Of a stretch of DNA of 30,440 bases, positions 1-21,062 are shown piece after piece. Source of the DNA: Candidatus Uhrbacteria bacterium. Lineage in GTDB: Bacteria; Patescibacteriota; Patescibacteriia; UBA9934; UBA11717. The DNA lies in assembly GCA_013203725.1 (NCBI GenBank), contig JABMPK010000003.1, positions 1-30,440 on the forward strand, in the 5' to 3' direction. The translations under genes were made by a program, and so were the position numbers. The stretch's first letter is position 1, and each line of letters starts with the position of its first letter. The notes below the pieces were generated by a model. It searched no databases. It saw only the letters and a list, made by a program, of their open reading frames with translations, and had not been told where the DNA came from.

Positions 1-1
1 A

Positions 2-117
2 GCCAGTAGCGCAATGCTACTGATGAGGGTCTTGCAAACCCGTTTCTAAGCCCGAGCTCATCTGAGCTCGGGACTCCAACTAGACATTGATTCTACAACC
101 ATCAATCTCTCGAGGAG
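2..117 (+). repeat. 116-bp intergenic repeat, copy 1 (three-hairpin structured motif + leader + SD)
   Basis: Identical to 452-567 except T15/C465. Hairpins at 4-22, 27-41 and 51-72; ends in GAGGAG 6 nt before ATG 124. Confidence 0.95.
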
Positions 118-123
118 ATAAAC

Positions 124-459
124 ATGCCCGAGCCAAAGTTCGTACACGTCCCGCCGACTCTCTACATCTGTTTCGGATACAGACTGCATGTCGGTATCTG
201 TCACATCGTACTGCGTGGACATTGCGCCCAGGTCTTCGACGAAATGGCGAAGGAGGTCGCGGAACTCGAAGTACTGGACGGCCTGCTCTATGACGACCCT
301 GCGTTCGAGTCGCCGCTGCAGCTTGATGCAGCCGTCCGCGAAACGTTCGTGTCATACGACAGAATGGCGGTTCAGAAGCAGTGGGCCAAGTACCACAGTG
401 ACGCGGAGCACGCCGCTGGTCGGAAGTGCCGGCAGCGCAAATGTCACCAGTGCCAGTAG
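124..459 (+). CDS. Small hypothetical protein (111 aa), paralog of 574-879
   Basis: GAGGAG SD; ungapped 20/85 identity to the next ORF; the stop TAG lies inside hairpin 1 of repeat copy 2. Confidence 0.85.
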   Translation: MPEPKFVHVPPTLYICFGYRLHVGICHIVLRGHCAQVFDEMAKEVAELEVLDGLLYDDPAFESPLQLDAAVRETFVSYDRMAVQKQWAKYHSDAEHAAGRKCRQRKCHQCQ

Positions 460-567
460 CGCAACGCTACTGATGAGGGTCTTGCAAACCCGTTTCTAAG
501 CCCGAGCTCATCTGAGCTCGGGACTCCAACTAGACATTGATTCTACAACCATCAATCTCTCGAGGAG
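452..567 (+). repeat. 116-bp intergenic repeat, copy 2
   Basis: Exactly 450 bp after copy 1, one mismatch; hairpins at 454-472, 477-491 and 501-522. Confidence 0.95.
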
Positions 568-573
568 TCAGAC

Positions 574-879
574 ATGCCGAGCAACGACGAGCTTTTTCTG
601 GGGCGTATGGTCTTCGTGGCGTTTCCTGACATGTTGCACCTTGGCGTGTGTAGCATGGAAGTGAAGGGCATTTTCGGGGAAGTCCTGAACGAGGATGGTG
701 ATCGACTCTTCGACCTGGCCATCGACGAAGGCATCGTCCATGACGATGCTGGAGAGGTCTTCGAATTCGAGTTCGAAGTGGTCATGGGAGGAATGTTCGC
801 ATCCTTCGACCGCGCAAAGGTCCAGGAGTTCTTCCTGCGACAGTCCAGGATCGCAACGATCTTGATGAGGGCTGAATAA
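574..879 (+). CDS. Small acidic hypothetical protein (101 aa), paralog of 124-459
   Basis: GAGGAG SD; shares F-x3-LH-x-G-x-C, G-x3-DD and F-x-S-x-DR-x2-VQ with ORF 124-459 in the same register. Confidence 0.85.
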   Translation: MPSNDELFLGRMVFVAFPDMLHLGVCSMEVKGIFGEVLNEDGDRLFDLAIDEGIVHDDAGEVFEFEFEVVMGGMFASFDRAKVQEFFLRQSRIATILMRAE

Positions 880-921
880 GCCCGTTTCTACTGCACGAGC
901 CTTGAGCTCGTGTTTCCTTTT
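846..921 (+). ncRNA. Diverged third copy of the three-hairpin motif; last hairpin followed by a T-rich tract (terminator-like)
   Basis: CAGGATCG-CAA-CGATCTTG, ATGA, GGGC-N7-GCCC, GTTTCTA, CACGAGC-N5-GCTCGTG, TTTCCTTTT; compensatory changes relative to copies 1 and 2. Confidence 0.75.
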
Positions 922-971
922 GCTCGAATCCTATTCGTCTAGTAAGATGTCCCTATATTAATTGATAGATT

Positions 972-2801
972 ATGTGTGGGATTGTTGGCTATTTTGGAAA
1001 AAAGGAGGCTCAACCTGTATTAATGGAAGGGCTCAGGCGGCTTGAATATCGTGGATACGATTCGGCTGGGATCGCGACTATGGAGGGCGATGTTATTCGA
1101 ATTACTCGGTCTGTTGGAAAGGTGAGCGAGCTTGCAGCGTTGATTAAAGAGGGAGACCAGTCGAACGTTGGGATCGCCCACACACGTTGGGCGACTCACG
1201 GGAAGCCTACAGAAAGTAACGCTCATCCACACAGGAGTAACGACGGAAAAGTTGCGGTTGTCCACAACGGGATAATTGAAAACTACAAGGAGCTCAAGGA
1301 AATGTTACAGCGGTCAGGTGCCACGTTCGTTTCCGAAACTGATACGGAGGTTATTGCGCATCTGATTCGTCATGAACTTAGTTCGGGTATAAATTTGGTT
1401 GATGCGACTCGTACAGCTCTAGTTCAACTCAAGGGAACGTATGGCATTATCGTAATGTCGTCGGAATATCCAGACTACATAGTAGCTGCTCGTATGGGAT
1501 CGCCGTTGATTTTGGGAGTTGGCGACAATGAACACTACATAGCATCGGATGCATCTGCAATTTTGCGCTACACACGCCAGATGGTCTACTTGGACGATGG
1601 AGAGATTGCAGTTGTTGGCCGTGGTGGTTTTGATATTCGCACATTGGGTAACAAGATGGTCGAGAAAGAAATCGAACTGATAGATGCGGCCGAGGCTGAG
1701 ATTCAGAAGATGGGGTATCCGCATTTCATGATGAAGGAGATGATGGAGCAGCCCGATGTTTTGCTAAACTCTACTCGCGGACGGCTTGATGTTGAAAACG
1801 GTATGGCGATTCTGGGTGGACTGCGTGATGTGGCCGACCGTCTTCGCGACATTGAACGGGTTATTATTGTTGGATGTGGTTCTGCATACTACGCGGGACT
1901 CGTTGGCGAGTACATGTTGGAGGAGTATGCGGGAATTCCAGTTGAGGTGGAGCTTGGGTCCGAGTTTAGATATCGCAAACCTATTATTTCAAAAAATACG
2001 GTCGTAATTGCAATCTCGCAAAGCGGAGAGACTGCCGACACGCTTGCTGCTGTTCGTGAAGCTAAAGAAAAGGGCGCGCTGACACTTGGAATAGTGAACG
2101 CGGTAGGGTCGACCATAGCGCGCGAGACAGATGCAGGAGTCTATAACCATGCGGGACCAGAGATCGGTGTCGCTTCAACAAAAGCATTCGTGTCGCAGAT
2201 GACGGTGCTCGCATTGTTCACGCTATTTCTTGGTCGTCAGCGTTCAATGTCGCTCGTGACAGGGCAGAGGATCGCGAAAGAAATTTTGGAGCTTCCAGAT
2301 AAGGTAAAAGAAATTTTGATACAACAAGACAAGATAGGAGATATTGGTTTGCGTTACAAAGATGTTGCGCATGCGTACTTTCTCGGACGGAAATACTGTA
2401 ACCCGATCGCAATGGAGGGGGCGTTGAAGTTGAAAGAGATATCGTACATTCATGCAGAGGGATATGCGGCAGGGGAGATGAAGCACGGACCGATCGCGCT
2501 TATTGAAGACGGCTTTCCCGTGATCGTTTTAGCTCCAAAAGATTCTGTATACGATAAGTCGATGAGTAACTTGGAGGAAATTCGTGCGCGTGGTGGACGA
2601 GTGATTATGGTTACTACTGAGGGGTGTGAGATTGATAGAAATTTGGTCGATGACGTAATCTTTATTCCAAAGACTTTGGAGATGTTGACACCAATCTTGG
2701 CGGTGATTCCTCTGCAGCTTCTTGCGTACTTTGTGACAATAGAGAAAGGGTTAGATCCGGACATGCCGCGTAATCTTGCAAAATCTGTTACAGTTGAGTA
2801 A
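972..2801 (+). CDS. glmS: Glutamine--fructose-6-phosphate transaminase (isomerizing)
   Basis: N-terminal MCGIVG, HTRWATHG, SQSGETADT, C-terminal PRNLAKSVTVE. Confidence 0.99.
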   Translation: MCGIVGYFGKKEAQPVLMEGLRRLEYRGYDSAGIATMEGDVIRITRSVGKVSELAALIKEGDQSNVGIAHTRWATHGKPTESNAHPHRSNDGKVAVVHNGIIENYKELKEMLQRSGATFVSETDTEVIAHLIRHELSSGINLVDATRTALVQLKGTYGIIVMSSEYPDYIVAARMGSPLILGVGDNEHYIASDASAILRYTRQMVYLDDGEIAVVGRGGFDIRTLGNKMVEKEIELIDAAEAEIQKMGYPHFMMKEMMEQPDVLLNSTRGRLDVENGMAILGGLRDVADRLRDIERVIIVGCGSAYYAGLVGEYMLEEYAGIPVEVELGSEFRYRKPIISKNTVVIAISQSGETADTLAAVREAKEKGALTLGIVNAVGSTIARETDAGVYNHAGPEIGVASTKAFVSQMTVLALFTLFLGRQRSMSLVTGQRIAKEILELPDKVKEILIQQDKIGDIGLRYKDVAHAYFLGRKYCNPIAMEGALKLKEISYIHAEGYAAGEMKHGPIALIEDGFPVIVLAPKDSVYDKSMSNLEEIRARGGRVIMVTTEGCEIDRNLVDDVIFIPKTLEMLTPILAVIPLQLLAYFVTIEKGLDPDMPRNLAKSVTVE

Positions 2802-19532: not shown

Positions 19533-21062
19533 CTACCGTGCGTATTCTGTTACGCGCGTTTCTCGAATCAACGTAACCTTGATCTCTCCAGGATAACGAA
19601 GTTCACTTTCGATTTTTGATGCGATGTTTTTCGCAAGATTGTAAGCGCTCAAGTCGTCGATCACTTGCGGCTTAACAAATACGCGAATCTCCCGTCCTGC
19701 CTGAATTGCGTATGCCTTTTCTACACCTTCAAACTCAGTAGCCGTTTTCTCCAACTCCTCGAGTCGCTGAATGTACTGCTCTAAAGTGTTCTTTCGTGCA
19801 CCTGGACGTGCGCCAGACAATGCGTCCGCAGTTTTTACAATCACAGCTTCAAGCGTCTTTGGCTTGTCTACATGATGGCCAATTGACTGATACGCAATCT
19901 CTTCTGGGAAGCCAAACTTTTTCATGATGTTGTAACCGATTTCTGGATGCGACCCTTGCATGTCGTGGTCAACGGCTTTCCCGATATCGTGGAACAATCC
20001 ACCTTTTGTACAAACATGCACATCAGCGCCAAGCTCTTCTGCGAGCATTCGCGCGATCGTTGCAACTTCCATTGCGTGCTGAAGTTGGTTTTGTCCGTAA
20101 CTGGTTCGATACTTCAATCGTCCCAAGATCTGTATCAACTTTGGATCGATTGATGACAACGGGATTCCAAGTTCCGTCAGAGCACCTTCTCCGGCCTTCT
20201 TCATTTCAATTGCGAGCTCCTTCTTTGATGTTTCAATAGCTTCTTCAATACGTGCTGGTTGAATGCGTCCGTCCTTCACTAGAATCTCAATCGCACGTTT
20301 TGCAACCTGTCGGCGGATAGGGGAGAAAGAAGAGATCGTAACAGCCTGCGGAGTATCGTCAACGATGATTTCAGTTCCTGTCTGCATCTCAATCGCGCGA
20401 ATGTTTCGCCCCTCTTTTCCAATAATGCGCCCCTTCATCTCGTCTGAAGGGAGCTGAACACTAGATGTAGTCGTCTCTGAAGCGTGTCCAGAGGCGTACC
20501 GCTCAACAACGAGCGACAGCATTTTCTTTGCACGTCTGTCTAACTCGTCGTCGACCGAATCTTCTAACTTTCGTATACGGCTCACAAGAACATCCTCGCT
20601 GTCTTTTTCTACACGCAAGAGTAGTTCCTCGAGTGCTTTCTCCTGTGGCATTCCAGCGATCTCCTCAAGCTTCAACTCAGCCTCTAGACCAAGCTCTTCT
20701 AGTCGAGACTTGATCTTTCGTAGTCGGTCCTTCTCGTCTTCAAGCGCCTTGTTGTTGGACTCGAGTTCTAGAAGTTGTTTGTCGAATGCGTTCTCTCGCG
20801 ACTCAAGACGATCTTGTAATTTCTTGAGTTCACCTCTACGTTCCTTCTCTTCGTTCTTTGCCTCGTCTATGACTTTTATTGACTTCTCCTTTGCATGGAG
20901 CAAGATTTCTTGTTCCTTCTGCTTGGCGGTTGCAAGGATTTTTTCCGCCTCTGCCTCCGCATTGTTTGAACGCGTTTTCGCTCTTTGATCACGTACGTAT
21001 ACGCCAAGAGCAGCCCCGGATACGAGACCGATTATGAGTGTTACTATTTGTATTGTTGGCAT
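19533..21062 (-). CDS. rny: Ribonuclease Y
   Basis: N-terminal TM, coiled coil, KH (KGRIIGKEGRNIR), HD (HDIGKA), C-terminal IRETRVTEYAR. Confidence 0.97.
   Translation of the reverse strand: MPTIQIVTLIIGLVSGAALGVYVRDQRAKTRSNNAEAEAEKILATAKQKEQEILLHAKEKSIKVIDEAKNEEKERRGELKKLQDRLESRENAFDKQLLELESNNKALEDEKDRLRKIKSRLEELGLEAELKLEEIAGMPQEKALEELLLRVEKDSEDVLVSRIRKLEDSVDDELDRRAKKMLSLVVERYASGHASETTTSSVQLPSDEMKGRIIGKEGRNIRAIEMQTGTEIIVDDTPQAVTISSFSPIRRQVAKRAIEILVKDGRIQPARIEEAIETSKKELAIEMKKAGEGALTELGIPLSSIDPKLIQILGRLKYRTSYGQNQLQHAMEVATIARMLAEELGADVHVCTKGGLFHDIGKAVDHDMQGSHPEIGYNIMKKFGFPEEIAYQSIGHHVDKPKTLEAVIVKTADALSGARPGARKNTLEQYIQRLEELEKTATEFEGVEKAYAIQAGREIRVFVKPQVIDDLSAYNLAKNIASKIESELRYPGEIKVTLIRETRVTEYAR

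Follow-up and report, generated by a model that had tools for sequence, protein, structure and literature searches.

A predicted lineage-specific three-hairpin mRNA structure in the gene spacers of an accessory operon of Candidatus Uhrbacteria

The islet between ruvA and glmS

The first 921 nt of a 30,440-nt stretch of DNA from a Candidatus Uhrbacteria bacterium, a member of the Candidate Phyla Radiation (CPR), carry three copies of a motif composed of three hairpins, H1, H2 and H3, at the junctions of small genes (positions 4–72, 454–522 and 846–913 of contig JABMPK010000003.1, assembly GCA_013203725.1; the whole stretch is referred to here as the window). A preliminary description had taken this motif for an unrecognised, structurally constrained element of the sense strand, a reading upheld by the absence of an Rfam match, by covariation, by the asymmetry of the G·U pairs and by the frames of the stop codons. 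By these comparisons the motif is genuine: a cis-acting mRNA structure that is specific to one lineage and had not been described before.

Contig C13, from an 894-kb genome that is 88% complete, opens with the window, which begins inside copy 1 of the motif, that is, inside a repeat. Because the last 117 nt on the reverse strand of a second contig, C21, match window 1–117 exactly (minus strand of locus L034, 1–117), the array continues upstream; C21 supplies a third paralogue, ORF0 (ORF, open reading frame), together with the remainder of the island as far as ruvA and ileS. In the joined locus, ileS and ruvA are followed by a unit of about 530 nt that runs from a promoter to a terminator and has no long ORFs. 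Behind a second promoter stand three small genes (57, 63 and 174 aa), a gene for a 104-aa STIV_B116-like (DUF1874) protein, and then ORF0 (151 aa), ORF1 and ORF2, each with a copy of the motif after it; the third copy includes a terminator, and glmS comes next. The island stretch covers about 3.9 kb at a GC content of 53–62%, as against 47% for the genome, and is an accessory operon that has been inserted after ruvA and before glmS in a small, Uhrbacteria-like (CPR) genome. All motif copies in this genome are confined to this one locus, the features of which are as follows.

L034 564–109, minus strand: ORF0, 151 aa, on contig C21; stop UAG inside H1 of copy 1
4–22, plus strand: H1 of copy 1, a 7-bp stem with the pentaloop GCAAU and G·U as eighth pair; contains the ORF0 stop UAG
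23–50, plus strand: AUGA linker of copy 1, H2 (27–41; 4 bp, 7-nt loop) and the U-rich linker GUUUCUAAG
51–72, plus strand: H3 of copy 1, internal type, a perfect 10-bp GC-rich hairpin without a U-tract
73–123, plus strand: ORF1 leader, in which ACUCC (anti-SD) is predicted to pair with GGAG of the Shine–Dalgarno (SD) sequence (112–117) around hairpin H4 (86–106)
124–459, plus strand: ORF1, 111 aa, an ORFan paralogue; stop UAG (457–459) inside H1 of copy 2
454–522, plus strand: motif copy 2 (H1 454–472, AUGA 473–476, H2 477–491, linker 492–500, H3 501–522); 94 bits with the covariance model
523–573, plus strand: ORF2 leader, with predicted anti-SD (G)ACUCC, hairpin H4 (536–556) and SD GAGGAG (562–567)
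574–879, plus strand: ORF2, 101 aa, a paralogue; stop UAA (877–879) in the H2 loop of copy 3
846–892, plus strand: motif copy 3 (H1 846–864, AUGA 865–868, H2 869–883, linker GUUUCUACU 884–892); 78 bits with the covariance model
893–921, plus strand: H3 of the terminal type (hairpin 893–913) with the U-tract UUUCCUUUU; intrinsic terminator of the island operon
920–948, plus strand: probable promoter of glmS itself (TTGCTC, 17 nt, TAAGAT), on which the consensus scan made no call

The layout initially proposed for the motif, H1-AUGA-H2-GUUUCUA-H3, was recovered in all three copies by direct reading of the sequence and by folding, and single-sequence folding gives back the same hairpins with a z-score of about −3.5. 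Over 127 nt, copies 1 and 2 share 97% identity; copy 3 aligns with them at 74%, in its H1-H2 part. H1 had been drawn with 8 bp and a CAA loop; it is better described as a 7-bp stem closed by the pentaloop GCAAN, the position of the eighth pair being occupied by G-C, G·U, G/G or G/A in different copies. Within this genome the linkers and the lengths of the H1 and H2 loops are invariant, as claimed. For GUUUCUA and the H2 loop this does not extend to the orthologous copies of related lineages (described below), in which GAUCUUA or GCUCCUGUUUC takes the place of GUUUCUA and the H2 loop has 4–5 nt; across copies, variation in the H2 loop and in the second linker is unrestricted. By contrast, the GCAA of the H1 loop is kept in all good copies, with U, C, C, G or A as fifth base, and the closing C-G pair of H1 and the flanking UGAUGAGG are likewise unchanged.

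The notion of one motif at each junction holds in so far as the hairpins recur, but two modules are better distinguished, and the H3 of copy 3 is the terminator of the operon. Module A, made up of H1, AUGA and the first pairs of H2, marks the 3′ end of each of the ORF0, ORF1 and ORF2 genes and overlaps their stop codons. Module B, a short hairpin followed by a U-rich linker and the strong hairpin H3, is the general spacer of the island: an H2-like GC hairpin, a U-rich linker, an H3 (CCCGAG...CUCGGG) and the conserved leader also precede ORF0, arrangements of this type precede orthologous genes that have no H1, and most island genes are preceded in some form by an H2-like hairpin, a U-rich linker, H3 and an SD-hiding leader. 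On this comparison only H1 and AUGA are specific to the 3′ ends of the ORF0/1/2 family.

What follows H3 depends on its place in the array. At internal junctions H3 has no U-tract, and ACUCC lies directly 3′ of it and is predicted to pair with the SD sequence of the next gene; this occluding ACUCC/GGAG helix is present in both the minimum free energy and the centroid folds, and the alignment fold also shows it, with one covarying pair (G-C to A-U, in three of seven sequences). A second type of conserved leader stands before other island genes (L034 1264–1210 and 2759–2705, minus strand); its hairpin, formed around GCCAUGCUU, shows compensatory changes (UGUGC/GCACA versus UACGC/GCGUA), and the leader ends in UUCUGAGAG before the SD sequence. 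The last H3 of the array belongs to a distinct, equally conserved class, GCACGAGCC...GGCUCGUG followed by UUUCNUUUU. The terminator scan calls it (893–913 plus TTCCTTTT) at the end of the transcription unit, and makes no call at the H3 of copies 1 and 2, where the stem is followed by ACUCCAACUAGA with no U-tract. No consensus promoter was detected within the units by a promoter scan of the window. Beyond the terminator glmS has a probable promoter of its own, the TAAGAT −10 box of which is conserved in relatives.

ORF0, ORF1 and ORF2 are paralogues sharing 22–25% identity and a common LHxGxC block. Ratios of nonsynonymous to synonymous divergence (dN/dS) of 0.18–0.38 against their orthologues (0.18 for ORF1), together with an AlphaFold2 (AF2) model of ORF1 which, from only seven sequences, attains a pLDDT confidence score of 84, indicate that they are real genes. 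A word-indexed search of 5.8 billion proteins returned three outside homologues of this family, and an exhaustive profile search, over 1.8 billion representatives, brought in a single distant paralogue, which belongs to the third of the lineages described below; all accepted homologues come from the same genus. Two further matches were set aside as likely spurious repeat-protein alignments, one of them to a cohesin scaffoldin. No Pfam or PHROG family matched the proteins, and no fold relative of the ORF1 model was found in the PDB or among the clusters of the AlphaFold Database. The interior of ORF0 (L034 about 310–268, minus strand) also contains two hairpins of 5 and 9 bp with GCAA or GCAAC loops; they lie within the conserved KLQRKLAAVRNAWQ coding stretch and may be structural or a by-product of the codons.

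Covariation, strand and distribution

The base-pair changes reported between copies 2 and 3 all hold: U-A to G-C, G-C to U-A and G-C to G·U in H1, U-A to C-G in H2, and C-G to A-U in H3, with the wobbles G11·T15 and G848·T862 where they had been placed. Over the 46 nt of H1-H2, the two copies differ by 12 substitutions, 7 in stems, 5 in the H2 loop and none in the H1 loop or the linkers. All 7 stem substitutions preserve pairing (three double-sided changes and one G-C to G·U), H3 adds one further double-sided change, and a naive simulation puts the chance of all pairs surviving at about 2 × 10⁻⁵. Since copies 1 and 2 are nearly identical, they are not independent and count statistically as one sequence, so that the window itself provides a single real comparison.

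Further comparisons come from two other Uhrbacteria-like lineages, one of them annotated Candidatus Uhrbacteria, in which the outside homologues sit in the same ileS-ruvA-[island]-glmS-femAB synteny. The 3′ junctions of both carry the motif and add independent compensatory changes: in lineage 2 the copy after the ORF0-type gene has the H1 stem CAAGGGC/GCCUUUG with the loop GCAAG, and in lineage 3 H1 is CAAGGGC/GCUCUUG with the loop GCAAA. A degenerate copy follows the ORF1-type gene of lineage 2, with H1 intact, the loop ACGAU and H2 lost. The orthologous and paralogous copies are 25–30% diverged, with only pair-preserving changes in the stems. RNAalifold recovers the three hairpins from the five good copies, with 9 pairs altered on both sides, and in a separate count of pairs 98% of the cells pair and 8 pairs show double changes; 4 of the 7 H1 pairs covary. 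The covariation score of 0.405 compares with 0.183 in shuffles, none of 500 shuffles reaching it, and slid controls pair in only 15–44% of cells. The covariation first seen within one genome is therefore reproduced with orthologues, and the evidence for it is good, although below the grade of an R-scape test, because the five copies come from one genus and amount to only about four independent variants.

Several observations bear on the strand and the kind of molecule under constraint. The plus strand of H1–H3 contains five or six G·U pairs and no A·C pair, and three more U·G pairs occur on the plus strand in further H3 copies before other genes; every non-Watson–Crick pair in H1–H3 is G·U or U·G on the plus strand and a mismatch on the minus strand, in agreement with the asymmetry noted at the outset. 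Protein coding, as had been argued, does not explain the conservation, for stop codons enter the motif in three frames: ORF0 and ORF1 end with UAG in the 5′ arm of H1, both ORF0 orthologues end with UGA at the 3′ end of H1 (the first UGA of UGAUGA), and ORF2 reads through the H1 of copy 3, in a frame other than that of ORF1, to its UAA in the H2 loop. Synonymous divergence (dS) between the lineages is about 0.9–1.5, yet the GCAA loop, UGAUGAGG and the stem ends are unchanged. Taken together, the wobbles confined to G·U, the three stop frames and the blocks held invariant despite high dS point to constraint on a nucleic acid of the sense strand, most simply the mRNA; by sequence alone single-stranded DNA would also be compatible.

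The motif corresponds to no described family in the searches made. Scans with Rfam 15 of window 1–1200 at E ≤ 10, of the whole window at the gathering score and of the upstream 4 kb at E ≤ 1 gave only chance-level matches and no ribozyme or cis-regulatory family. A covariance model of the motif (R1), run on 100 relatives and 150 genomes of the class, scored 78–96 bits in the motif's own genus only and at most 25 bits elsewhere; the best examined of the weak matches, of about 20–25 bits, lies inside a YebC-type gene and the others were taken as terminator-like noise. A model of the leader (R2) was likewise confined to the genus. Pattern scans of viral contigs gave no exact match and, in a second scan, 7 matches of which none had an intact H1. 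The 29 matches in species-representative genomes were all due to chance, mostly from a Streptococcus coding stretch, and among the at least 120 matches listed for metagenomes one was true, from the third lineage already known. A genome search for trans-acting antisense partners of the invariant single-stranded blocks returned only chance-level matches. On this distribution the motif is best described as a structured spacer restricted to one genus. One public run (X5, from a different study) contains a relative about 85–96% identical over window 478–949, which covers the ORF2 leader and copy 3.

Known mobile or repeated elements were also considered. In the attC sites of integrons, R″ and R′ core sites (RYYYAAC ... 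GTTRRRY) enclose a single long, imperfect hairpin, and an integron integrase is encoded in the vicinity. Here GTTTCTA departs from GTTRRRY, the motif forms three separate perfect hairpins rather than one bulged hairpin, and no integrase was found among the called genes of the syntenic loci. A dispersed repeat similar to repetitive extragenic palindromes is excluded, as all copies lie in one locus, and neither the anatomy of the motif nor its context suits a miniature inverted-repeat transposable element, a diversity-generating retroelement, a CRISPR-like array or the glmS ribozyme.

The part of the island upstream of ORF0 contains further features. A near-consensus promoter (TTGACA, 17 nt, TATATT with TG) followed about 530 nt downstream by a 13-bp terminator delimits L034 3653–3089 (minus strand). 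This segment between ruvA and the island has neither long ORFs nor an Rfam match and is a candidate for a non-coding RNA; a related but shorter unit, of about 150 nt, is present in the third lineage. At L034 2700–2170 (minus strand) the only ORF has 18 codons, and the roughly 450 nt behind it contain a 16-bp hairpin and no ORFs; the third lineage carries a 126-aa gene at the matching place (L037 4565–4945); this cassette has probably decayed. The 104-aa protein (L034 1124–810, minus strand) belongs to the STIV_B116/DUF1874 family (Pfam, 4 × 10⁻¹³), keeps its conserved GH motif, and has AFV3-109 as best solved relative (4.5 × 10⁻¹²). The DUF1874 family includes the viral ring nuclease anti-CRISPR AcrIII-1 and the host protein Crn2 (bioRxiv 10.1101/778746), for which reason the island may be an array of anti-defence or CRISPR-ancillary genes. 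Homologues of the DUF1874 protein elsewhere lie in similar ORFan islets, once adjoining a Ro60/TROVE gene.

Candidate functions of the spacers

The function proposed here, which is given about an even chance of being correct, is that of a structured sense-mRNA spacer, intercistronic or 3′-terminal, through which processing, stability and translation within the accessory operon would be controlled. RNase Y would cut the polycistronic RNA in the U-rich linker, leaving H1 and H2 to shield the new 3′ end of the upstream cistron and H3 to shield the new 5′ end of the downstream cistron from RNase J, while the ACUCC/GGAG helix, by occluding the SD sequence, would set the translation of each cistron. 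As a side effect, the near-identical spacers would supply homology for the gain, loss or swapping of cassettes.

The splitting or stabilising of a message, already suspected in the preliminary description, is plausible on the anatomy of the unit, namely a hairpin, a U-rich linker and a strong hairpin in a genome with both RNase Y and RNase J. RNase Y is encoded in the region of window 20487–21050. The layout is polycistronic, a chain of conserved sense-strand hairpins with no internal promoters found and a terminator at its end. RNase III sites between the early genes of phage T7 and the stabilising hairpins of polycistronic operons are familiar precedents for intercistronic processing, by which the new 3′ and 5′ ends come to carry hairpins. 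Domains of RNase E/G and RNase III were not found in the present genome, which is 88% complete, and this sets the motif apart from RNase III-type processing; compared with ordinary processing hairpins it also adds a sequence-invariant H1, with its GCAAN loop, over the stop codons. RNase Y, in turn, has been reported to cleave an intergenic region a few nucleotides 5′ of a double-stranded element, thereby shifting expression within an operon (PMC5449607). That site, in saePQRS of Staphylococcus aureus, resembles the present units in having hairpins between cistrons and a single-stranded U-rich stretch just 5′ of a strong double-stranded element; cleavage in the present units is predicted from their sequence.

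Four points weigh against this proposal. The guide element for RNase Y in S. aureus has 24 bp, whereas H3 has only 10 bp, although stacking on an adjacent helix is possible. H1-H2 is kept before the terminator in two of the three terminal copies, where processing is not needed, and module A may therefore have another role, such as the binding of a protein. GCAA, UGAUGAGG and the leader are more strongly conserved in primary sequence than mere stabilising hairpins would require. Finally, with about four independent variants from one genus, a formal covariation test with R-scape would be underpowered.

The invariant GCAA loop and UGAUGAGG block, which suggest a specific partner, make protein binding the main rival, albeit an unlikely one: H1 would be a boxB-like hairpin read by a basic protein of the island to control termination, translation or decay. 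The boxB hairpins of lambdoid nut sites are bound by the arginine-rich peptides of N proteins, and H1 shares with them a short stem and a five-base loop capable of a GNRA-like fold with one base free. This rival would account for the invariance of GCAA, the closing C-G pair and UGAUGAGG at a dS of about 1 while the fifth loop base is free, and for the persistence of H1-H2 before the terminator. The operon also encodes Arg-rich proteins, the candidates being the 57-aa Arg-rich product of the first gene and the Arg-rich C-termini of the ORF0-type proteins, which are encoded at H1 itself. Against it, no island protein matches an RNA-binding or N-like family, the fold search with the ORF1 model gave nothing informative, a boxA-like element was not identified, and H1 stands at the 3′ ends of genes in the distal part of the operon, whereas nut sites are close to the promoter.

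A similarly small likelihood attaches to the possibility that the spacers are kept alike at the level of DNA, as substrates of recombination or gene conversion, the RNA structure being secondary. Copies 1 and 2 are nearly identical over exactly the spacer from stop to start although the flanking ORFs share 22% identity, and the cassette content of the three lineages differs precisely at the units, different sets being joined there to the same terminal unit; these two observations together point to gene conversion or cassette exchange at the units. In addition, a contig of public run X2, matching window 452–656, joins the 3′ end of ORF0 through the spacer to ORF2, ORF1 being skipped; the contig is of low coverage and crosses a repeat longer than the assembler's word, and is either a recombination variant between the two 127-nt spacers or an assembly artefact. 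A precedent exists in the promoter/stem-loop (PeSL) cassettes of T4-like phages, in which composite units of a stem-loop and an early promoter flank variable ORFs (PMC2839356, PMC4122927). The present units resemble PeSLs in being short, composite and placed beside small variable ORFans where three lineages differ by whole genes, and differ from them in having no detectable promoter, in showing RNA-type covariation and an SD-occluding helix, and in belonging to a cellular CPR locus between ruvA and glmS. Recombination, moreover, requires identity and not hairpins, and would leave unexplained the compensatory changes, the strand-specific G·U pairs and the loops held invariant between lineages. 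Cassette exchange would be a consequence, and not the cause, of the structural conservation.

More speculative, and doubtful on present evidence, is the idea that H1-AUGA-H2 is a new RNA signal marking the 3′ boundary of swappable anti-defence cassettes, either read by an island protein in the manner of boxB, which would couple the expression of each cassette to its own product, or acting as a minimal new processing RNA. The motif could then serve an anti-CRISPR-like gene array of a CPR bacterium as its connector, both regulatory and recombinational, a possibility raised by the position of the DUF1874 protein, of the AcrIII-1/Crn2 family, next to ORFan paralogues.

The remaining explanations fare poorly. 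That the spacers have no function and merely retain the trace of a tandem duplication of a gene with its flanks was already disfavoured and is very improbable: the array is indeed one of tandem paralogues and copies 1 and 2 are nearly identical, but copies diverged by 25–30% have changed only in pair-preserving ways in their stems, and the unpaired blocks are invariant at a dS of about 1.

Self-cleavage at each junction by a hammerhead-like or new ribozyme, one of the functions first suggested, is not borne out and is regarded as scarcely credible. The hammerhead core (Rfam RF00008, RF00163 and relatives) is CUGANGA ... GAAA, set in a three-helix junction with a stem III and an NUH cleavage site. 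The intercistronic position would suit a ribozyme, and the motif has CUGAUGA followed by a G-C-closed hairpin, with a closed hairpin before it, an arrangement reminiscent of stems I and II in type III hammerheads. It has, however, GUUU, GAUC or GCUC where GAAA is required, no cleavage triplet, and U for the core C in three of five variants (copy 3 and both orthologues). No stem III is predicted or conserved; the sequence 5′ of H1 shows no pairing with that 3′ of H2. The hairpins are joined by neither a conserved junction nor a pseudoknot, conservation is absent from the H2 loop, ribozyme models, the hammerhead included, gave no match even with the threshold relaxed to E ≤ 10, and no further feature points to catalysis.

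The slightest chance of all is given to a ligand-sensing, riboswitch-like element with two platforms, SD occlusion at the internal copies and the terminator at the last: the same H1-H2 does precede either an SD-hiding helix or a terminator, but two short, independent hairpins with a 4-nt linker make no junction that could form a pocket, neither the H2 loop nor the second linker is constrained, other genes are preceded by the 'platforms' with no H1, the putative promoter of glmS itself lies behind the terminal copy, and the distribution is limited to one genus.

The last H3 matches intrinsic terminators in all three lineages, with a GC-rich stem of 8–10 bp and UUUCNUUUU at the end of the operon (the orthologous hairpins of loci L035 and L037 carry UUUCGUUUU and UUUCAUUUU), and it is orthologous in all three although each has a different paralogue before it. 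The internal H3 hairpins differ from terminators in that they lack the U-tract and are followed by the leader of the next gene, and H1 and H2 are not terminator parts.

Meaning for the CPR accessory genome

To our knowledge, hardly anything is known about how mRNAs are processed or their translation controlled in the accessory genomes of CPR bacteria, and the core genes are reported to be without SD sequences. The motif offers a clean and small example of selection at the RNA level in such a genome, and the islet, unlike the core genes, has strong SD sequences that are predicted to be structurally masked. Within its scope of one genus and about four independent variants, roles of the motif in processing, stability and translation are plausible. 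If the processing model is true, decay of the RNase Y/J type would be exploited to give each ORFan cassette its own stability and rate of translation, and the same spacer would double as a joint for cassette exchange. The neighbouring ring-nuclease homologue suggests that the cassettes may serve in anti-defence; if so, the spacer would be a marker by which such arrays could be found.

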